Notes under the pieces: generated by a model | Told to the model about the DNA's origin: nothing | Database searches by the model: none | The model's input: the letters and a program-made list of their open reading frames with translations, nothing else | Source: a virus | Strand: one strand, 5' to 3' | Length of the DNA stretch: 64,000 bases | UHGV virus genome: UHGV-0200554 | Shown: positions 4,975 through 59,140 of the stretch, one piece after another | Position numbering within the stretch: position 1 is the first letter of the stretch | Layout: each line of letters starts with the position of its first letter | Program-made: the position numbers and the translations under genes

Positions 4975-5265
4975 TCACTTATGATCAGCGTCGTAGTCTT
5001 TCCAGGGGAGAAATTCGCAATCAAGGCCGGGGGCAACAACCTCACCAGTAGTAAGACCTTGCAGGAAGATAGTCTGCCCAGTTTCTGTAACGATGCATTC
5101 AAAATTCCTCTGATGGGCATAAAGCACCGTATAGATCTCGCCGAGGTACAACCCTTTGATACCGCCTGTTTTTACGCACATGACGCTCATAAGAGGGTAT
5201 AAACCTTCTTCACAAGTTAGTTTGCTCAGTTCTCTCATAGTGTATCTCATTGTGTCCTCCATCAT
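4975..5265 (-). CDS. hypothetical protein (96 aa)
   Basis: ORF; 4-nt overlap with next gene suggests coupling. Confidence 0.45.
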   Translation of the reverse strand: MMEDTMRYTMRELSKLTCEEGLYPLMSVMCVKTGGIKGLYLGEIYTVLYAHQRNFECIVTETGQTIFLQGLTTGEVVAPGLDCEFLPWKDYDADHK

Positions 5266-5570
5266 CCAAAAATTGTTTCGAGATAGGCAGCTCTGCGGTT
5301 TTTCGTGAAATCCTGCAAATCATTGAGATCGGCATCAGTCCTGGTACACAAAGACTCCCTGCATGTGTTCAGCCAATGCAGATCTATCATAACCTGACAG
5401 AAGTCCCTGGGTAGCATATTATCCATAACATCCTTCTTGTCAAGGTTTGGGAAGATTTCATCGATAGTGCTATCATCGGGACTAATGATACTGAATGTTC
5501 TGTCAATACCTGTGCAGACAGCTACAAGTGTAGGGCTGTCACCAGGCAACAATTCGTGATCACGAGACAT
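5262..5570 (-). CDS. hypothetical protein (102 aa)
   Basis: ORF in leftward block. Confidence 0.45.
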   Translation of the reverse strand: MSRDHELLPGDSPTLVAVCTGIDRTFSIISPDDSTIDEIFPNLDKKDVMDNMLPRDFCQVMIDLHWLNTCRESLCTRTDADLNDLQDFTKNRRAAYLETIFG

Positions 5571-5579
5571 GTAAACCTC

Positions 5580-5608
5580 AGATAAAGAAAAAGGGAGCCA
5601 AAGCTCCC
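5580..5608 (-). terminator. intrinsic terminator (GGGAGC-loop-GCTCCC + T-run on minus strand)
   Basis: Hairpin followed by TTTTTCTTT on minus strand, just downstream of gene 5615..5920. Confidence 0.5.
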
Positions 5609-5614
5609 TTCAGA

Positions 5615-5920
5615 TTATTCTGCTGAACGCTTGAAGAGGATATCAGTCTCTTCCATTGCGTCAACTTCGGCTTCCAGTTTCGCGCGACGTTTCTCTGATT
5701 CATATCTCTTATCGAATTCAGTAGCCACCAGTGACTTCAGGAATTTAGGAGAAATCAAGTGATCTTCTTTTTCCACCTTGATAATATCCTTCATTGCTTC
5801 CTTCATGTCTTTAATTTTCAACTGGAGATCAACCAGTTCTTCAACTGTTTTACGCAGACGTTCGCGTTCTGCTGGGTCAGCCGGAAGAGAAGTAAACAGT
5901 TCAACTTTAGTACGTGCCAT
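5615..5920 (-). CDS. hypothetical charged helical (coiled-coil-like) protein (101 aa)
   Basis: ORF; KE-rich heptad-like sequence. Confidence 0.5.
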   Translation of the reverse strand: MARTKVELFTSLPADPAERERLRKTVEELVDLQLKIKDMKEAMKDIIKVEKEDHLISPKFLKSLVATEFDKRYESEKRRAKLEAEVDAMEETDILFKRSAE

Positions 5921-5938
5921 CTTTAGAGGTCCCCTTTC

Positions 5939-6151
5939 TTAATCTAAAATGTCTACAATTTTGAAGTACTCTGGGCATTCGATTACATTCAGGCAGATGT
6001 AACGGCTATCACCATCGTCATCAATCGTATAGAAAGCTAACTCACCGTCAACAGCTGGATGGTGGACGACGTAACCATCGTAGATTCCACCTTTAGTGAA
6101 CCCCCAGTAATCACCGAGGCATTTCACTGCAAAGCAATCACCGTTTGTCAT
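5939..6151 (-). CDS. hypothetical protein (70 aa)
   Basis: ORF in leftward block. Confidence 0.45.
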   Translation of the reverse strand: MTNGDCFAVKCLGDYWGFTKGGIYDGYVVHHPAVDGELAFYTIDDDGDSRYICLNVIECPEYFKIVDILD

Positions 6152-6273
6152 TTCTTCAACTCCTCACGAATCCGGTCACAAACCACTTTCAGCAGATACG
6201 ACACCCCAGCAAGTATCCCGCCAAGTACAAGGGATACACCGAAGATCATCAATAGGACATAGATATCTACCAT
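6148..6273 (-). CDS. tiny single-pass membrane peptide (41 aa, MVDIYVLLMIFGVSLVLGGILAGVSYLLKV...)
   Basis: Hand-translated; fills gap between track ORFs; stop overlaps next start (ATGA); below track length cutoff. Confidence 0.3.
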   Translation of the reverse strand: MVDIYVLLMIFGVSLVLGGILAGVSYLLKVVCDRIREELKK

Positions 6274-6297
6274 GGAAACGTCCACAAGCCACCCCCC

Positions 6298-6555
6298 CTA
6301 TCGAATACCTTTCAGGATATCTTCAAGTTTATAGCCTTCGTCAATTGCATGGATAACTTCATCAGCTGTGTAGTAGTATTCTTTACACAAGCGGCAGGCT
6401 ACAAACAGTTCACCACGAAGTTCCAGACGGCTGATATCAAACTCACTGAAACCCTGTTTACGAAGTTCTATCTTACACCATTCTACGGCAACCTTGCAAA
6501 CAATAAACAGGATTAAGATTGCCAGAAGAATGGCGGTCAAAGTACTGACTACCAC
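6298..6555 (-). CDS. small N-terminally membrane-anchored protein (85 aa)
   Basis: ORF; hydrophobic N-terminus. Confidence 0.45.
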   Translation of the reverse strand: MVVSTLTAILLAILILFIVCKVAVEWCKIELRKQGFSEFDISRLELRGELFVACRLCKEYYYTADEVIHAIDEGYKLEDILKGIR

Positions 6556-6564
6556 AGAGTCCCC

Positions 6565-6648
6565 TTAGATTAGAATGATAAGTGCGATGACTGCTGCCGC
6601 TGTAATAGTTATTGTTCCTAAAAACAACTTCAGCATTTCTTTGTTCAT
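6565..6648 (-). CDS. tiny hydrophobic peptide (27 aa)
   Basis: Hand-translated; ATGA overlap with upstream gene stop. Confidence 0.25.
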   Translation of the reverse strand: MNKEMLKLFLGTITITAAAVIALIILI

Positions 6649-6953
6649 GATATAATCTCCAAAATTTCATAACGGTTAGGTTTGAATATGAAGGCTTCTT
6701 CTTTTTGGTATTTGCTTTTTATCTTCTTGCCCCCTTTTTCTTTACGGCAGAAATAACAAATGATAACGTTATCTCTTACCATGTGGAACAGGATATCTTC
6801 TTCTGTCAACCCACAGGTAGAAAGGTCCTCGTAGGAGAGTGCTTTAGCTACAGATTCTTTGGTTGGGGTTTCACCAACAACTTCGTCACCTTCGTGAACC
6901 CCGTACTCTGCCAAAGCATCTCCCACACCAATCAATCTAACTTTAACCAGCAT
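6645..6953 (-). CDS. hypothetical protein (102 aa), possible distant member of the small paralogue family
   Basis: ORF; C-terminus ...YEILEIIS. Confidence 0.45.
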   Translation of the reverse strand: MLVKVRLIGVGDALAEYGVHEGDEVVGETPTKESVAKALSYEDLSTCGLTEEDILFHMVRDNVIICYFCRKEKGGKKIKSKYQKEEAFIFKPNRYEILEIIS

Positions 6954-8347: not shown

Positions 8348-8668
8348 TTAAAAGTGGCCTTGCGCTAGTTTAATGAGCGCATCTGCCATTTGACGAACCG
8401 CTTTGGCGTGTTCCAAAGGCGAAAGTCCGTCTTCAGGATCGAAGCGTAATGCTTCCATTACTGCTTTCAGTTCACCATCTTCCGCATGGATTTCACCACG
8501 TACCGGAAGTGCCCCAGGACACGATTGGTCCATACTTTCTTCAACGTAATCAACACCAGCGATAAGACCAAATGCACCGTTGTTGTCGATAACAAGTTCT
8601 TGTTTCATCTTGGCACCCTCTTTGTTTCGATGTGTGGTAACTATAACAGATTCAAATCGTGTTGTCAA
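8348..8668 (-). CDS. hypothetical protein (106 aa; true start may be the internal Met)
   Basis: ORF in leftward block. Confidence 0.45.
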   Translation of the reverse strand: MTTRFESVIVTTHRNKEGAKMKQELVIDNNGAFGLIAGVDYVEESMDQSCPGALPVRGEIHAEDGELKAVMEALRFDPEDGLSPLEHAKAVRQMADALIKLAQGHF

Positions 8669-9073: not shown

Positions 9074-9404
9074 AGTTCAGAATCATGGCATCTACAAACA
9101 ACATCCGCATAACGTTGAGGTGTTTGTTCTTGCGGCTATAATACACGTATGCATCCCCGTTGTCAAACGGAAACTGTGTGTCACCATAAACTTTTTCCAG
9201 AGCATTTTCCAGCTCTTCCTGGAGCTGATAGTACGTCCCTGTATCAAGACCTTGATAAGAGGCATACTCAGCCAGGTTCCCACATAAACCGCGATGATCC
9301 TGGAACACAGGATCAGTGTCTTTAGCACCTCCCCATGCCCAGCTCCTGTACTCCATGTAAAACTGGTACATGAAGTCAGAAGGAATTACTGTCTCAATAA
9401 CCAT
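9042..9404 (-). CDS. hypothetical protein (120 aa)
   Basis: ORF. Confidence 0.45.
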   Translation of the reverse strand: MVIETVIPSDFMYQFYMEYRSWAWGGAKDTDPVFQDHRGLCGNLAEYASYQGLDTGTYYQLQEELENALEKVYGDTQFPFDNGDAYVYYSRKNKHLNVMRMLFVDAMILNYEEAHRGESV

Positions 9405-9761: not shown

Positions 9762-10025
9762 TTACAGCTTTTTTGGCGGTGCTGCCTTAGGCATATGAGC
9801 TTTAGTATGGATCTGGTCAGCAGTGTAATACTGTGCACCCTGCTCTGTTAAAGCTCGGTCTTTCACATAGCAATCAGCAGCCCAAACGGCCTGTTCTTCA
9901 CTATGCCATTTACGCTGACCATTTAGCCAAATATCATGCCACATTGGGATAAAGCCAAGGTGAACTTTCTTCACCTGTGCCCTCCACCATACACCATCAA
10001 AGAAGATTTTAAATTCCACTTCCAT
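9762..10025 (-). CDS. hypothetical protein (87 aa)
   Basis: ORF. Confidence 0.45.
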   Translation of the reverse strand: MEVEFKIFFDGVWWRAQVKKVHLGFIPMWHDIWLNGQRKWHSEEQAVWAADCYVKDRALTEQGAQYYTADQIHTKAHMPKAAPPKKL

Positions 10026-37699: not shown

Positions 37700-38175
37700 C
37701 TCTGTTACCTTCTTCTGTTTTTAACAGAGTATAGCAGGCACAAGGCCTGCTGTCAATGTTCACTCGTCACGTAATGCTTTGATCATCTGTTCGAAGAATC
37801 TCCTTGCATCGTCGTAGTGCTTGTTCAGGAGTGCTTCTTTATAGTAGTAACGATAAACAACGTATTCAACGCCACGCATATGCCACCTCACTTGTTGTCA
37901 GCTTCAATCATCAGGAGTAATGCATCTTTGAACCCCATAAAAAGAACGCCACAGCGAATTTGCGGGTACGCCCTCAGGATTGGGAGCATGTACACCTTCT
38001 CTTCGTCACAGAACGTTTGAACGCTGTAGAATACGATTCTTCTCATGGTGGTTTCCTCCTATGTGTGCAAAACATATCACACCTTGTTGTGGAAGTCAAG
38101 AATAAAATCATGTTGACAACGAGATCAGGATGTGTTATCGTTCGCCAACAAGCGGATAAATGGAGGACTCATAAC

Positions 38176-38475
38176 ATGATTAGTCAAGAAACAGTACACG
38201 ATATGGCACTGGCATTCATCCGTGAGGGGTGTGATGTGTGTTACATACCAAACCCTCGCCATCAGAATGACCCTGAAGACCCATCTATTTATCTTTCTGT
38301 ATCTGGCAGAGGAATGGACCATCTTATCTATCTCGGACTGAGTAGTAAGAGAAGGGATGAATATATTGAAAAATACCAGCAGGCAATTGATCAGGCAAAA
38401 GAAGACGCACATGGTGAACAGATGTACAATTTTATTCCTGGTTTGGACGATTGTAAGGATGGAGGTGCTTTATGA
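38176..38475 (+). CDS. hypothetical protein (99 aa; track ORF 37960..38475 trimmed to RBS-linked ATG)
   Basis: GGAGG RBS before ATG 38176; stop overlaps next start. Confidence 0.45.
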   Translation: MISQETVHDMALAFIREGCDVCYIPNPRHQNDPEDPSIYLSVSGRGMDHLIYLGLSSKRRDEYIEKYQQAIDQAKEDAHGEQMYNFIPGLDDCKDGGAL

Positions 38476-39197
38476 AGAAGGTTTTAGAGTTTCAATTTGA
38501 AATTGCTGAAATAGGTGGAGAAAGACGGAGGCTTGTTAATGCAAGAGATTTGCATAAACAGTTAGGCATTCGTACACGCTTTAGTGACTGGATTAAAAGG
38601 TCATTAATTAATCAAAATTTCTTGCAAGATGTTGATTTTATCGTGGTTCTCAAAAATGAGTATGACGCAAGTAAGTTTGGTGGCATACGTAAGCAAGAGG
38701 AATATTTATGCACTGTTGAGACAGCTAAACACCTTGCTATGATGGCGAAGACACCGAAAGGTAAAGAGGTTCGTAATTACTTTATCGAAATTGAAAGAAA
38801 GTACCGCGAGTACATGATTGAGCAACGGAGGTTGGCAAGGAAGATGCTTAACATGGAAAGCTCAACAGATATGGTCTGCATAACTGTTTCGGCGAAGAAA
38901 ATCGCTAAAGTGCTTGGGATAACCATGTCTGTGTTTGACCTGAATGGATTCTTGAGGACGGATGGTTACAAGCATAAACATTGGTATAACGCAACTCTTG
39001 CTGGTCAGGAGGTGTGGAATGATTGGGTTATGAAAAGCAAATATGGGGGTCATAGGTTTACAAGCCAGAACAGTATTAACATTGTGCAATGCCTGCTTTA
39101 TGAAAAAGGTATTAGTAAGCTGGAGGATGACATTTGGCAAGAACTTGTTTGGATTGTGTTCATGAAGAATTGGGTTGATTATCTTGCCAACAGATGA
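38472..39197 (+). CDS. Rha/Ant-like phage regulatory (antirepressor-type) DNA-binding protein
   Basis: N-terminal RLVNARDLHKQLGIRTRFSDWIKRS resembles Rha/Ant-type domains; assignment approximate. Confidence 0.45.
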   Translation: MKKVLEFQFEIAEIGGERRRLVNARDLHKQLGIRTRFSDWIKRSLINQNFLQDVDFIVVLKNEYDASKFGGIRKQEEYLCTVETAKHLAMMAKTPKGKEVRNYFIEIERKYREYMIEQRRLARKMLNMESSTDMVCITVSAKKIAKVLGITMSVFDLNGFLRTDGYKHKHWYNATLAGQEVWNDWVMKSKYGGHRFTSQNSINIVQCLLYEKGISKLEDDIWQELVWIVFMKNWVDYLANR

Positions 39198-39810: not shown

Positions 39811-39839
39811 TTGACAATGTTGAGTTAAAACGCTATACT
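39811..39839 (+). promoter_or_regulatory. sigma70-like promoter TTGACA-17-TATACT
   Basis: Consensus -35 and near-consensus -10 with 17-bp spacer. Confidence 0.55.
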
Positions 39840-40488: not shown

Positions 40489-40564
40489 GCCCCGTTAGTT
40501 CAAATGGAAGAACAGTGGCCTTCTAAGCCATAGGTTACAGGTTCGAGTCCTGTACGGGGTGCCA
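40489..40564 (+). tRNA. tRNA-Arg (anticodon UCU, reads AGA/AGG), CCA encoded
   Basis: Hand-folded cloverleaf: 7-bp acceptor, 4-bp D stem, 5-bp anticodon stem with loop CTTCTAA, 5-bp T stem with TTCGAGT, GCCA 3' end. Confidence 0.85.
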
Positions 40565-55043: not shown

Positions 55044-55517
55044 ATGGTCACAGATATTTTAACACCTTATGCATATGACCCGAAAAAGGTTCGTCTCTAC
55101 TTGATGACTCAGAGAGTATTCGGTTTTGCAGCGGATACAAAAATTGTTGTTTCTCGTAACGAGGACAATATTTACCCGCATATGGGCGTGGATGGTGAAC
55201 TAAGTGCAGCTTTATCCCGTAACCAATCTGGTGTAATGACTGTATCTTTACAGAACACCTCCGCATGGAACGCCTACCTGTCAGACTGGCAGAAACAAGC
55301 ATCTATCACAGGTCTTGTATTCTTCCCAGTGCTGCTGGAAGGTAGCCAGGGGCCAGGCATCAGCACTATTGGCTGGATTCAGAAACAACCTGATCTGACT
55401 TATGGTACTGAAGTTGCCCAACTTGACTGGGAAATCGGCGTACTGGATTGCTGGTTAAACAAAGACAACATCGAATCTGCAATGATGGGACTTGCAGGTT
55501 TAACTGGTATCATTTAA
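55044..55517 (+). CDS. tail tube protein (putative)
   Basis: 157-aa ORF after sheath candidate. Confidence 0.45.
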   Translation: MVTDILTPYAYDPKKVRLYLMTQRVFGFAADTKIVVSRNEDNIYPHMGVDGELSAALSRNQSGVMTVSLQNTSAWNAYLSDWQKQASITGLVFFPVLLEGSQGPGISTIGWIQKQPDLTYGTEVAQLDWEIGVLDCWLNKDNIESAMMGLAGLTGII

Positions 55518-55524
55518 TGCTACA

Positions 55525-55551
55525 GGCCACCTTCGGGTGGCCTTTCTTGTT
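55525..55551 (+). terminator. intrinsic terminator (GGCCACC-TTCG-GGTGGCC + TTTCTTGTTT)
   Basis: Read directly. Confidence 0.7.
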
Positions 55552-55559
55552 TATAAGGT

Positions 55560-55589
55560 TTGACAAAAGTTGGTGTTTTGTGGTATAGT
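55560..55589 (+). promoter_or_regulatory. sigma70-like promoter TTGACA-18-TATAGT
   Basis: Read directly upstream of nuclease gene. Confidence 0.55.
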
Positions 55590-55622
55590 TCCTTTGTGTT
55601 TAAAATTACTAGGAGTTTACAG

Positions 55623-57149
55623 ATGGCTGGAAAATGTTACACTAAAAAAGAATGGCTAACAGCTGTCTTCAAAGAAAACCCTGAGTTTGAAGAAATGTAC
55701 GATTACAGTCAAACTGAGTACAAAGGCAGTAGAGAAAAAGTGAGCATTATTTGCAAAAAACATGGTGCGTTTTCTGTAGAAGCAAATGCTCATAGAAAAG
55801 GAGAGGGATGCAAAGAATGCTACCTTGAGCGTAAACGTGGAAACAAGGAAGAATTCGTTGAAAAAGCTAAAGAAGTGCATGGGGTGCGTTACAACTACTC
55901 TAAGGTTGTGTATAAAGACAGAGTGACAAAAGTAGATATCATCTGCCCTGATCACGGAGTGTTCTCACAAAAACCTAGCAAACATTTGAGAGGACAGGGC
56001 TGCCCCCATTGTGCTAACATGGCTCGTGGTAGAAAAAGAAGAAACTCTTTTGAGGAAGTAGTGGAACAGGCCAAAGAGGTCCACAAAGATAAATACGTTT
56101 ACAAAGGTATGTTTTACGATGAAAGGAAGAAAGGTATTCTTAATATTAAATGTTCAAGGTGTGGATCAGAGTTCCAACAACCTGTGAAAGACCATGTACA
56201 CCAAAATCATGGGTGTAGACATTGTGCAAAACTAACCTCAAGAGTGGAAGAATCTGTCTTTGACTTCATAAAAACTATCTGCCCAGACGCGGAGCAGTCT
56301 GATCGCACTATCCTGGATGATGGCAAAGAGTTAGATATCTATGTCCCATCAAAGCGTGTGGCGATTGAAGTCAATGGTATCTTCTGGCATGGAGACAATC
56401 ATAAGCCTAGGGATTATCATTACAAAAAATGGTTAGCCTGTAAAGAGAAAGGTATTCGTCTGATCCAGATCACAGATTATGATTGGAATAACAACCAAAA
56501 AGTGTTTAGCCAGTTGCTGGCTCATGCCTTGGGGTGCAATAGTGAGCGTAAAGTGAATGCTAGGGAATGCGAAGTGGTGCATCTCAAATCAACAGAGTGC
56601 AAAGAGTTTTACAACGCTTACCACCCACAAGGCCATTCTCCTAACCCAATTAATCTGGCCTTGAAAACGAAAGAAGGGGAAATTGTAGCGATCATGAGCT
56701 TTGGTTATGGTAAAACTACAAGGGGTCAGGCCAGAGCTAACGGTACGACTAAAGCAACATGGGAGTTATCAAGATTTGCATCAAGCTGCTCTGTTCGTGG
56801 TGGGGCATCTCGACTGTTTAAAACGTTCATCAGAGAGAACAATCCAGAAGAGGTTAGCTCATTCAGCATGAATGACTACTTCGCTGGTGGGGTTTACGAA
56901 GTGTTAGGATTTGTTGCGGAGACGTATGGCAAACCAGACTACAGAGTGTTCCATCCGTTCAGCGGGTTACGCCACAAATCATACTGGCAACGCCGTAATA
57001 TCCCGAAACGTTTGAAAGAACTGGGTAAAGAAGAATTAAACTTTGACCCAGAAATTGATCAGCGTACAGAGCGGGAGATAGAGGATTTGGTTGGTGCTAT
57101 CCGGTTGTGGGACAGCGGCAAGATCAAATGGGTATGGAAAGCTGAGTAA
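55623..57149 (+). CDS. free-standing nuclease: three zinc-ribbon repeats (HGxF...H..GxGC..C) + PD-(D/E)xK-like (DUF559/Vsr-like) core + C-terminal unknown domain
   Basis: Three repeats of KHGAFS...GEGCKEC type; VAIEVNGIFWHGDNHK...IRLIQITDYDW; own promoter and flanking terminators. Confidence 0.5.
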   Translation: MAGKCYTKKEWLTAVFKENPEFEEMYDYSQTEYKGSREKVSIICKKHGAFSVEANAHRKGEGCKECYLERKRGNKEEFVEKAKEVHGVRYNYSKVVYKDRVTKVDIICPDHGVFSQKPSKHLRGQGCPHCANMARGRKRRNSFEEVVEQAKEVHKDKYVYKGMFYDERKKGILNIKCSRCGSEFQQPVKDHVHQNHGCRHCAKLTSRVEESVFDFIKTICPDAEQSDRTILDDGKELDIYVPSKRVAIEVNGIFWHGDNHKPRDYHYKKWLACKEKGIRLIQITDYDWNNNQKVFSQLLAHALGCNSERKVNARECEVVHLKSTECKEFYNAYHPQGHSPNPINLALKTKEGEIVAIMSFGYGKTTRGQARANGTTKATWELSRFASSCSVRGGASRLFKTFIRENNPEEVSSFSMNDYFAGGVYEVLGFVAETYGKPDYRVFHPFSGLRHKSYWQRRNIPKRLKELGKEELNFDPEIDQRTEREIEDLVGAIRLWDSGKIKWVWKAE

Positions 57150-57154
57150 TCATA

Positions 57155-57179
57155 AGCCTCTTCGGAGGCTTTTCTGTCT
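57155..57179 (+). terminator. intrinsic terminator (AGCCTC-TTCG-GAGGCT + TTTCTGTCT)
   Basis: Read directly. Confidence 0.65.
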
Positions 57180-57183
57180 ACAT

Positions 57184-57211
57184 TGACAAAAAGTGAGTAC
57201 AATGTTATAAT
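57184..57211 (+). promoter_or_regulatory. consensus sigma70 promoter TTGACA-16/17-TATAAT
   Basis: Perfect hexamers read directly. Confidence 0.65.
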
Positions 57212-57290
57212 AAATCTATATAATAACGTGGTGGTGACAGTTGTCTAAAATCGCATATCTGAATGCTTTTCATAAGAGGATAATAAAGAA

Positions 57291-58433
57291 ATGACAGATA
57301 TCTACAACGATAAAGTTGTACACGCCGAGGTGGCTCTTGGTAAAGACGCTGCATCGGGTGGCAACAGGACTTCTCTGGATAAAGAGGCTTTACGAAGTTA
57401 TGTTCTTGCTGCTAGAGAGGCGGCTAACAAAGCTAAAGTGGCTTCAGAAGAGGCAGCTTTATCACGAGACGCTTCCCAAGCAAACGCTAACAATGCATCG
57501 ATTTCCGCAACCAATGCACAAGATAGTGCAGATCGTGCAGAATCAGCAGCTAACGCAGCCGAATTATCTTCCTCTTCTGCTGAGGGCAGTGCAACTGCCG
57601 CTGCCTTATCTGCAACGCAAGCATCCGCTGATGCATCTACAGCAACACAAGCAAAAGATGACGCTGTTGCAGCCTCTGGTGTGGCAACCCAACAAGCAGC
57701 AAATGCTGAATCATCTGCCGATACATCCGCTGAAAGTGCAGATGCAGCAGCAGCAAGTGCCGCTTCTGCTCAAGGATCTGCAACTTCTGCTTCCGGTTCT
57801 GCCACGACTGCAACAGAGAAAGCAACAGCAGCGAACAAATCTGCCACCGCAGCAAAAACGTCAGAGACTAATGCCAAAACCTCTGAAACCAACGCCGCAA
57901 GCTCAGCTAGTGCAGCATCCGTTTCAGAAAGCAATGCTTCTGATTCTGCAACAGCAGCAGAGTCTTCAGCGACTTCTGCAAGATCGAGTGCTTCAAGTGC
58001 ATCGACAAGCGCCAGCACAGCCACTACTAAAGCGAACGAAGCTGCAACCAGCGCCACTGATGCTGCTAACAGTGCCAAATCCGCTTCTAATAGTGCATCA
58101 ACTGCGACAACAAAAGCAGGTGAAGCAAGTAAGTCAGCAACAGATGCTGCAAATTCAGCAAGCTCTGCTTCAGCAAGCAAAGATGCTGCTGCTGCCTCAG
58201 CCAGCGCCGCAGCTACCAGCGAAACCAAAGCAAAAGCCAGTGAAACTGCTGCTGCAAGCTCTGCTTCTTCGGCAGCCACCAAAGCATCCGAGGCTGCAAC
58301 ATCTGCCACTAACGCAGCAAAAAGTGCATCAGACGCTGCAAATAGTGTGGAGGAGGTAAAAGCACAGTTCGAACAGCGCCTTACTGAACTTGAGGCAAGA
58401 ATTGCTGCTCTTGAGGGTGCTAAAAATAATTGA
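57291..58433 (+). CDS. Ala/Ser-rich repetitive fibrous protein with C-terminal coiled coil (fibre/whisker-like)
   Basis: Long degenerate repeats (SATxAAxSAxxAAxS), C-terminal EEVKAQFEQRLTELEARIAALE. Confidence 0.5.
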   Translation: MTDIYNDKVVHAEVALGKDAASGGNRTSLDKEALRSYVLAAREAANKAKVASEEAALSRDASQANANNASISATNAQDSADRAESAANAAELSSSSAEGSATAAALSATQASADASTATQAKDDAVAASGVATQQAANAESSADTSAESADAAAASAASAQGSATSASGSATTATEKATAANKSATAAKTSETNAKTSETNAASSASAASVSESNASDSATAAESSATSARSSASSASTSASTATTKANEAATSATDAANSAKSASNSASTATTKAGEASKSATDAANSASSASASKDAAAASASAAATSETKAKASETAAASSASSAATKASEAATSATNAAKSASDAANSVEEVKAQFEQRLTELEARIAALEGAKNN

Positions 58434-58600
58434 CACAAAAACCGCTTGATGTATTATGCCTCCAACAAACAAGTTGGGGGCTTTTGCTATGAAACACTTT
58501 GAAGAGACTTAGGGTTGCATCTTTTGGATTATTGCAACACTGATGATCGGTCTGTTCTTTGTTGTACCTGGTGTGGAGGCTGCACGGACTATGCACCTTG

Positions 58601-58629
58601 TTGACAAAAAGAAAGTACAATGCTATAAT
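58601..58629 (+). promoter_or_regulatory. consensus sigma70 promoter TTGACA-17-TATAAT
   Basis: Perfect hexamers read directly. Confidence 0.65.
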
Positions 58630-58675
58630 AAACCTATGCGATAACGCATAACAACTAACTTAAGGGTAACGAGAA

Positions 58676-59140
58676 ATGCCAAACTTTAGACCTACTACAG
58701 AAATAGATTTAGTCGGACATAACTTCATCATAACCCATTGGTCCCCGATGGTGTGTATGCATAACCTGCCAAAGATTGGTAGGATTATCGCTGTGCCGAT
58801 GGGAGCTATTGGTGGTGAATTACTTAATGGTGGGAGAAATTTAGCAGAAGTGCTCCCAACAGCCTTAGTCTATCTGTTCGAACAACTTGATGACCAATCT
58901 ATTGACGAACTGTTTAAAATCCTCTTCAGCGATGTTACAGTAGACGGTGTGGACAAGGTGGATCCTGATAAACTCTTTACTGGCAATCTGTTTGCAATGC
59001 TTAAACTGGCTGGTAAGGTGCTGGAGGTAAATTACGGATCTTTTTTCACGCAAGAAGGTTTAGACGGCCTGATGTCGATGTTGCAGGGACTGCAAATGGC
59101 GAATCAGATCAACAGTCTGGACCAGGAAACTCAGGAATAA
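58676..59140 (+). CDS. tail assembly chaperone (G-like)
   Basis: Position immediately upstream of tape measure; followed by -1-frame ORF. Confidence 0.5.
   Translation: MPNFRPTTEIDLVGHNFIITHWSPMVCMHNLPKIGRIIAVPMGAIGGELLNGGRNLAEVLPTALVYLFEQLDDQSIDELFKILFSDVTVDGVDKVDPDKLFTGNLFAMLKLAGKVLEVNYGSFFTQEGLDGLMSMLQGLQMANQINSLDQETQE
59041..59047 (+). other. candidate -1 programmed ribosomal frameshift slippery heptamer T_TTT_TTC
   Basis: In 58676 frame codons are TTT TTC (SFF); -1 frame appears open from ~59017 through 59397. Confidence 0.4.

Follow-up and report, generated by a model that had tools for sequence, protein, structure and literature searches.

We analyzed a 64,000-nucleotide (nt) stretch of the virus genome UHGV-0200554 (hereafter the window; window coordinates are numbered along the strand presented), which belongs to a myophage related to Vequintavirinae (rV5/Mydovirus), and focused on a gene at 55623..57149 (+) that encodes a 508-amino-acid (aa) protein and lies between the tail tube gene and the tail assembly chaperone (TAC) gene. 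With a probability of about 80%, this gene is a free-standing Hef-type homing endonuclease gene (HEG) in an rV5/Mydovirus-related tail operon. A sequence-only reading of the same DNA had proposed a mobile or moron-type insertion and a homing endonuclease as one candidate product. Both proposals were strengthened. The gene is absent from distant tube-chaperone junctions, is distributed in patchy clades, and is represented by divergent lineages that replace one another, and its product matches PHROG families 559 and 3339 over the full length and is ~40% identical, across 95-99% of its length, to the "homing endonuclease" of Xanthomonas phages phiL7, OP1, and CP1. The family, its Vsr-like nuclease, the zinc-ribbon modules, and the fusion of a Mom domain to a nuclease have already been described; what is new is a member in a new slot of another phage group.

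Domains and family of the encoded protein

The program-called open reading frame (ORF; 55560..57149) opens, as the sequence reads, at a TTG inside a promoter -35 hexamer. Because TTG 55560 is part of this hexamer, we placed the real start at ATG 55623, a credible start codon located 6 nt after TAGGAG, a ribosome binding site (55611..55616, +) identified by direct reading of the sequence. The stop codon is at 57149. The ORF noted earlier stands, and its length is corrected by this start from 509 to 508 aa. PHROG matches, tblastn, and the ratio of nonsynonymous to synonymous substitution rates (dN/dS) underlie the assignment of the gene (508 codons plus stop) as a Hef-type (EDxHD/Vsr-like) homing endonuclease gene.

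An AlphaFold2 model of the protein had a mean pLDDT (predicted local distance difference test) value of 87. Three tandem zinc ribbons of the CapR/DUF723/DUF4379 type, predicted to bind DNA, occupy residues ~8-70, 75-134, and 143-205 (55644..56237, +) and are followed by a Vsr-like PD-(D/E)xK nuclease domain (residues 206-304; 56238..56534, +) and by a GNAT-fold domain homologous to phage Mu Mom (residues 305-508; 56535..57146, +). The three zinc-ribbon repeats and the PD-(D/E)xK-like core had been recognized before, and domain searches and an alignment of 40 homologues bore both out; the C-terminal Mom-like domain (~305-508) had been overlooked. Each zinc-ribbon repeat contains paired zinc ligands in a C-x2-H/C ... 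C-x2-C arrangement (C44/H47/C63/C66, C108/H111/C127/C130, and C177/C180/C198/C201), and these Cys/His residues are invariant or nearly so in the 40 homologues. In Pfam, the DUF4379 "treble clef zinc finger" exceeded the cut-off (1.7e-7), and matches to DUF723 and Vsr were weak. Within the nuclease block, S206, E209, D238, E249, N251, H256, D258, and K269 are invariant in all 40 homologues, and the fold of this domain is the Vsr-type PD-(D/E)xK fold by which membership in the family is judged. In other phage homing endonucleases, arrays of CapR/DUF723 zinc ribbons have been proposed to direct the enzyme to its DNA target (PMC10448857, PMC12350094).

By its sequence, the window protein belongs over its entire length to the Hef-like/EDxHD family of homing endonucleases. 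The whole protein matched phrog_559 at 3e-103 and phrog_3339 ("homing endonuclease") at 2.4e-72, and the sole PADLOC match was to a "homing endonuclease" model. A tblastn search returned 966 phage records, 156 of them with at least 80% query coverage, and many of the matches, including those from Klebsiella, Salmonella, and Campylobacter phages, carry a homing endonuclease or Hef-like annotation. Phage Hef-type homing endonucleases have been assigned to the Vsr-like EDxHD family (Taylor et al., 2011, PMC3239194). The sole sequence match in the PDB was to I-Bth0305I, the founding member of that family, within its catalytic domain (3r3p), and E209, D238, N251, and H256 of the window protein align with E170, D196, N208, and H213 of I-Bth0305I. 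The protein gave no meaningful match in NCBIfam, and no structural-protein family was found among its matches in Pfam, PHROG, and NCBIfam.

The label of PHROG 559, "HNH endonuclease", was considered and rejected; neither Pfam nor NCBIfam returned an HNH family, and the fold is PD-(D/E)xK. This label is a misnomer because the members are Vsr-like PD-(D/E)xK proteins without an HNH motif, and the gene is best named a Hef-like (EDxHD/Vsr-type) homing endonuclease. No paralogue of the protein was detected in the window by tblastn, which gave only weak matches at 38.2 kb and 7 kb (E at least 0.1). No group I intron or other RNA was found near the gene; Rfam at gathering thresholds yielded a single tRNA, at 40.5 kb.

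Occupancy and turnover of the tube-chaperone slot

The upstream flank of the slot is the tail tube gene (55044..55517, +; phrog_280, with PF11681 Phage_Tube_PhiTE matching its orthologues), and the downstream flank is the tail assembly chaperone gene (58676..59140, +; phrog_3840 at 1.5e-55, with PF21822 Phage_TAC_15 matching its orthologues). The tail tube is 88.5% identical to that of rV5-type phages, and the window sheath DNA is ~72-73% identical to Mydovirus. The endonuclease gene had been placed between tail tube and fiber-like genes. The tube assignment held (PF11681), whereas the fiber-like ORF proved to be a separate insertion, and the ancestral downstream neighbor is not this ORF but the chaperone gene.

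We compared ~55 loci with an orthologous tube gene (referred to by L numbers) from annotated phages, IMG/VR, metagenomes, and Logan assemblies. Tube identity to the window was 95-99% in close relatives and 62-89% in distant ones. At ~40 loci in which the tube is at most 89% identical to that of the window, a terminator, a spacer of 78-190 bp, and the chaperone gene come after the tube gene, with no Hef homologue; presence in all relatives as a virion component, the condition named earlier as refuting the insertion, is thus not what the synteny of these ~40 relatives gives. The exceptions at this distance are L035 and L036, both of which have a Hef gene in the slot. Among the close relatives (tube 95-99%, chaperone 89-99%, and tape measure 89-99% identical to the window), 13 of 13 spanning the slot hold a Hef-family gene, or 14 of 14 counting the window, and a tube-protein scan of metagenomes added close relatives that were all occupied. 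The distribution is patchy because the more distant L035 and L036 (sheath identity, 63-65%) are occupied, whereas the nearer clade of L010-L013 and L051-L054 (~70%) is empty. Both the polymorphism for presence and absence at a collinear site and the intergenic position between the tube and chaperone genes are properties by which free-standing homing endonuclease genes are recognized. The nearest 14 placeable database homologues all reside in the tube/chaperone slot. Family members elsewhere also adjoin essential genes, lying at gp24/gp23 in Yersinia phage TG1 and between the topoisomerase II subunits in Campylobacter phage CP30A.

The occupants of the slot differ far more than their surroundings, with 32-100% identity in the nuclease and GNAT domains against 92-100% in the flanks, and they comprise at least three Hef lineages plus domain chimeras; across these lineages and chimeras the genes are 30-97% identical. 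The A lineage is present in the window, L003, L004, L007, L008, L032, and L033, and the B lineage, 32-35% identical to A, in L006, L009, L032, L047, and L049. A third nuclease/GNAT lineage occurs in L048, fused to a B-type N-terminus (~5076-6824). In L032 (5001-8503), an A-type gene (515 aa) and a B-type gene (621 aa) stand in tandem in the slot. Alleles differ most in the zinc-ribbon region (33-96% identity); in the A-type genes of L004, L032, and L033 this region has been replaced, with 36-42% identity there against 77-94% elsewhere, and a zinc-ribbon swap is also seen in L048. The history of the gene is discordant with that of its flanks, a further property of free-standing homing endonuclease genes. 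Synonymous divergence (dS) is 2-6 times as high in the gene as in its flanks, at 0.63 against 0.27-0.28 in L007 and 1.31 against 0.20-0.28 in L033, which is consistent with a separate history. The dN/dS of the gene was about 0.11, with Nei-Gojobori values of 0.11-0.22 against four orthologues, and the values of the single domains against the three closest orthologues were 0.08-0.19 for the zinc ribbons, 0.07-0.11 for the nuclease, and 0.04-0.12 for the GNAT domain, comparable to the sheath gene (0.13). These low values indicate purifying selection on all three parts of the protein and a functional gene, not a decaying remnant. In this clade, such genes and other small cassettes come and go at the tube-chaperone junction, a hot slot, and the ~14 near-identical backbones, with three or more lineages, a tandem pair, and domain chimeras, offer a compact natural setting in which to study how homing endonucleases compete and are retargeted.

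The inserted unit consists of a promoter (P1), a ribosome binding site, the ORF, and a downstream terminator, without the upstream terminator. P1 (55560..55589, +) reads TTGACA-18-TATAGT, as had been noted before, matches the consensus at 11 of 12 positions with a TG extension, and is common to the A-type alleles of L003, L004, L007, and L008. Both hairpins thought to bracket the gene are real, but the upstream one is the intrinsic terminator of the tube gene (55524..55551, +; GC-rich, with a hairpin at 55524-55543 that has an 8-bp stem, a UUCG loop, -16.1 kcal/mol, and z -3.9 vs shuffles). This terminator is ancestral and outside the cassette because an equivalent hairpin also follows the tube gene in L011, L013, L014, L016, L021, and L024, which have no nuclease gene. 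The intrinsic terminator closing the A-type Hef cassette (57154..57179, +) contains a UUCG-loop hairpin at 57154-57171 with a 7-bp stem (-10.5 kcal/mol, z -3.5 vs shuffles); the T-tracts after the two hairpins are both imperfect. DNA homology to the B-type carriers L006 and L009 ends at 55566, within the -35 of P1, and resumes at 58601, in the -35 of the chaperone promoter P2, so that the -35 hexamers of P1 and P2 are the left and right junctions. In L004, L007, and L008, the cassette terminator and a P2 copy stand directly 3' of the A-type gene, and the P2 sequence is directly 5' of the chaperone gene; in L003, the cassette terminator instead comes after an extra 112-aa ORF. No terminator was found after the endonuclease gene of the B-type carriers L006 (~9840-9870) and L009 (~9200-9232), and the -35 hexamer of the chaperone promoter lies within the last codons of the B-type gene (W I D K H G K stop), which means that the inserted gene itself supplies part of this promoter to the essential genes downstream. 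With its own promoter and terminator and its placement between genes that adjoin in relatives, the unit has the makeup of a moron, although no benefit of the Hef moron to the host cell is expected.

Near-consensus sigma-70 sites are a general feature of this genome. The window holds 22 sites that match at 11 or more of 12 positions, compared with 2.4 +/- 1.6 in shuffled sequences, and all 22 are co-oriented with genes, on the minus strand up to ~37.7 kb and on the plus strand beyond; examples are at 8668, 13481, and 34417 (-) and at 39811, 52061, 57183, and 58601 (+). Four of the six plus-strand sites fall within 55.5-58.7 kb.

The Mom-like domain and rival explanations

The last ~200 residues of the protein are a very well conserved block in the alignment of 40 homologues, have the GNAT fold, and are an integral part of the Hef family. 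The Pfam family Mom (PF25680) matches several Hef family members, of which P0107 exceeds the gathering score, and 4 of 13 isolated C-terminal domains of the family; the window protein alone gave no Pfam Mom match. A PDB profile search with the C-terminal domain returned a chance-level match only, and Mom was found by fold search and profile-profile comparison. Comparison by hhalign of the Hef C-terminal profile with a profile of eight Mom homologues (Mu Mom and seven annotated Mom-like phage proteins) gave a probability of 95.4% and an E-value of 1.7e-8 over 151 columns. In particular, Mom H58, R111, S146, Y159, and H183 correspond to the invariant or near-invariant H334, R384, S413, Y425, and H444, and the Mom motif E108-L109-x-R111 corresponds to (E/D/N)-L382-x-R384, R384 being paired with R111 in this shared E-L-x-R motif in all three alignments. 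S396 pairs with Mom S124 in one alignment and lies beside a gap in the profile-profile alignment. Mom Y59, N121, D149, R151, and N163 are not conserved in the Hef-type domain; D149, invariant among the eight aligned Mom homologues, is replaced by M416 (variable: M/A/T/Q), and R151 by D418. Mom requires D149 and R151 for activity (PMC13219725). Because of these two replacements, we filed the protein as carrying a Mom-like domain, not as a Mom enzyme.

The Mom-like domain is present in 319 phage records, including proteins annotated as "Hef-like", with up to 11 copies of such proteins in a single Campylobacter phage genome, and family members also occur in the jumbo phages RaK2 and Pseudomonas phages 30-3 and Paride. 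It is the only unusual feature of the gene. The Hef family thus joins a nuclease to a well-conserved Mom-like domain in which some Mom-specific residues are retained and others are missing. The domain most likely serves as an extra DNA- or cofactor-binding module. The chemistry of Mom was solved only recently, so that DNA binding, cofactor binding, or DNA modification by the Mom-like domain can now be tested directly.

If the gene is a homing endonuclease gene, it may spread during mixed infection with a phage lacking the allele. The zinc-ribbon array would recognize an extended, asymmetric sequence within or close to the tube-chaperone junction, the nuclease domain would cut there, and recombinational repair from the HEG-carrying genome would copy the gene and flanking markers into the recipient. 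Swapping of zinc-ribbon modules may retarget or diversify specificity. Promoter P2, located behind the unit, keeps the downstream chaperone and tape-measure genes expressed. We consider it unlikely that the GNAT domain of Hef enzymes is also catalytically active and marks adenines in or around the sequence that the enzyme itself recognizes. If it were, the donor would be an acyl or aminoacyl group, as Mom uses Gly-tRNA, the HEG-carrying genome would be immune through modification instead of target disruption, and the element would act as a "selfish restriction-modification" homing system, site-specific and contained in a single polypeptide. A similar idea has been put forward for the Mom-restriction endonuclease (REase) fusions found in jumbo phages (Iyer et al., 2021, PMC7824862).

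Several points weigh against the homing interpretation. No empty site was found in the close clade (0 of 14 genomes including the window), and an exact-pattern scan of IMG/VR for the tube terminator abutting promoter P2 found none; current mobility is therefore suggested only by lineage replacement and the patchy distribution. The nearest relatives with an empty site are ~74% identical in DNA around the junction, at which distance the target site is unreadable. Site-specific cleavage, copying by repair, and the role of the zinc ribbons in specificity are what we infer for the Hef protein. The link of the window protein to the name "Hef" runs via annotations and PMC3239194. I-Bth0305I D222, the fifth EDxHD residue, aligns to a non-conserved position, and the family-invariant acidic residue is D258, two residues past H256. 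Finally, the plain homing model does not explain a strongly conserved Mom-like domain.

This domain is the starting point of the strongest competing explanation, namely that the protein is a single-chain restriction-modification-like conflict enzyme whose genomic position is incidental, as in a moron. The Mom-like domain would hypermodify the phage's own adenines while the early-expressed nuclease attacks unmodified host or competitor DNA. The earlier suggestion of a nuclease used against competing DNA survives in this form as a minority alternative, to which we give a small chance, the homing interpretation being favored. It draws on the homology of the C-terminal domain to Mom, on the retained equivalents of Mom H58, R111, S146, Y159, and H183 and probably of S124 (S396), on purifying selection on the GNAT domain (dN/dS, 0.04-0.12), and on the near-consensus sigma-70 promoter of the gene. 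R111 is Mom-specific within GNATs and, like S124, essential (PMC7261163, PMC13219725), and the same explanation has been proposed for the jumbo-phage Mom-REase fusions (Iyer et al., 2021, PMC7824862). However, the activity-required D149 and R151 are replaced by M416 and D418 (PMC13219725), and the S124 alignment is ambiguous. The lineage is bound to one slot across divergent phage backbones, with slot-mates replacing each other, and such slot specificity and replacement are signatures of homing and not of a general restriction enzyme. CapR/DUF723 arrays target DNA in other phage homing endonucleases (PMC10448857, PMC12350094), and the 9-11 paralogues at different intergenic sites in some phages fit poorly with one global modification.

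The constant occupancy of the close clade could instead mean that the gene is a domesticated or stranded former homing endonuclease, fixed in the clade and no longer moving, and retained for some host-phage function, for instance keeping out co-infecting relatives, promoting recombination, or controlling the tail operon. A Hef gene in the slot of 14 of 14 close genomes, with no empty allele in IMG/VR, metagenome, and Logan contigs, would fit this explanation, as would purifying selection on the gene and A-type alleles of L003, L007, and L008 that diverge roughly in step with their flanks. We nevertheless regard it as quite improbable; several unrelated lineages, a tandem pair, and chimeras in the slot point to continuing invasion and replacement, the dS of the gene lies above that of the flanks in L007 and L033, and the same lineage occurs in the distant L035 and L036 while missing from the intermediate clade. 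Hardly any weight falls on the remaining alternative, in which the protein builds or helps to assemble the tail and merely resembles a nuclease. The location within a tail morphogenesis operon would suit such a role, but the gene is absent from ~40 related phages with the same tail genes, has its own host-type promoter and terminator, encodes fully conserved nuclease catalytic residues, and matches no structural-protein family.

The nearest described systems are Hef of phage U5 and the Hef-like free-standing homing endonucleases of T4-like, ViI-like, and Campylobacter phages, such as F-LimIII, F-LimVII, F-LimVIII, and F-LimX of LIMEstone1 and those of CP30A. The window protein is homologous over its full length to proteins annotated as Hef-like, and its gene is likewise free-standing between conserved essential genes. 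The title of a 2005 study by Sandegren et al. reportedly states that hef replaces mobE at one slot, and the turnover at the window slot resembles that replacement. F-LimVIII of the Dickeya phage LIMEstone1 also adjoins a tail tube gene (PMC3296691). In contrast to the known Hef-like systems, the window gene is in another phage group (rV5/Mydovirus-like) and another slot (tube/chaperone). I-Bth0305I, the EDxHD prototype (PDB 3R3P), shares the aligned E, D, N, and H catalytic positions and differs at the last acidic one. It is intron-encoded and has N-terminal NUMOD/helix-turn-helix DNA-binding motifs with the nuclease domain last (PMC3239194), whereas the window protein is free-standing, has zinc ribbons, and carries an extra C-terminal GNAT domain. 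The CapR-like plus EDxHD/Vsr "outgroup" enzymes of phage group I and II introns, with 3-5 zinc ribbons of ~60 aa followed by the nuclease, share with it both the zinc ribbons (CapR, DUF4379, and DUF723 kin) and the EDxHD/Vsr-like nuclease (PMC12350094). These enzymes are described as intron-encoded and nuclease-terminated, whereas the window gene lies between genes, and in its product the nuclease is followed by a Mom-like domain of 200 aa.

Phage Mu Mom, which performs tRNA-dependent N6 hypermodification of adenine (PDB 8BV8), shares the GNAT fold and profile homology with the C-terminal domain but is a standalone enzyme, whereas here the domain is fused to a nuclease. In the Mom-REase fusions of jumbo phages, a Mom-family GNAT is likewise joined to a restriction-endonuclease-fold domain; that fusion is read as a restriction-modification weapon (PMC7824862), whereas slot specificity, allele turnover, and multi-copy spread favor homing here. 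The T5orf172/CapR enzymes of ICP1-like and T5-like phages contain the same repeated CapR/DUF723 modules as "beads on a string", show domain swapping between alleles, and sit beside structural genes including those for TAC and tape measure protein (PMC10448857); their catalytic domain is GIY-YIG-like and without a GNAT, whereas the window nuclease is Vsr-like. With a terminator plus a promoter at every junction, the slot resembles the PeSL cassettes of T4-type phages, which are units bounded by a stem-loop terminator and a sigma-70 promoter, with recombination junctions at these conserved motifs (PMC2839356, PMC4122927). The window belongs to a different phage family and has different sequences.

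Second insertion and other features

Downstream of the Hef cassette, a 380-aa Ala/Ser-rich, fiber-like ORF (57291..58433, +) is a second, independent insertion with its own promoter, ribosome binding site, and terminator (58458..58481, +; 9-bp stem, -16.1 kcal/mol, z -4.1). It is bracketed by two P2 copies that form a 46-nt direct repeat of 85% identity. Copy 1 (57183..57228, +; TTGACA-17-TATAAT, 12/12 match) drives this ORF in the window, and copy 2 (58601..58646, +) is the right junction before the chaperone gene, where homology to all close relatives resumes. PHROG tail-fiber families match repeats of the ORF at 3e-15, and a tandem-repeat search in it found none. The ORF occupies the slot only in the window and is absent there in all other relatives. 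Pieces of it match a 1612-aa Ala/Ser-rich gene of L003 (1718-6556) upstream of the tail terminator gene, and this match in another slot suggests that the fiber-like module moves between intergenic slots. Some relatives also have, in the tube-chaperone slot, a small acidic ORF (108-112 aa) equipped with its own promoter (TTGACA...TGGTATATT); this ORF is located before the Hef gene in L006 (7580-7906) and after it in L003 (11642-11980) and gave no family match.

Within this phage group, homing endonuclease genes generally target the tail and neck module. In L035 (7413-10677), an HNH_3 endonuclease gene splits the tape measure gene, and in L036 (1-985), the adaptor gene is preceded by a gene for an endonuclease that combines T5orf172 and DUF723. 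The feature table of OY978796.1 (L002) looks shifted, with "HNH endonuclease" over the sheath gene, and its annotation was not used.

Elsewhere in the window, a 171-aa ORF (37960-38475), which has a chance-level zinc-ribbon resemblance to the Hef protein and gave no family match, precedes a gene for an anti-repressor (Ant)-like protein (38472-39197; phrog_5817, 4e-29). The only Rfam match, a tRNA-Arg gene (anticodon TCT; 40489-40564, +), is located at the start of the rightward gene block.

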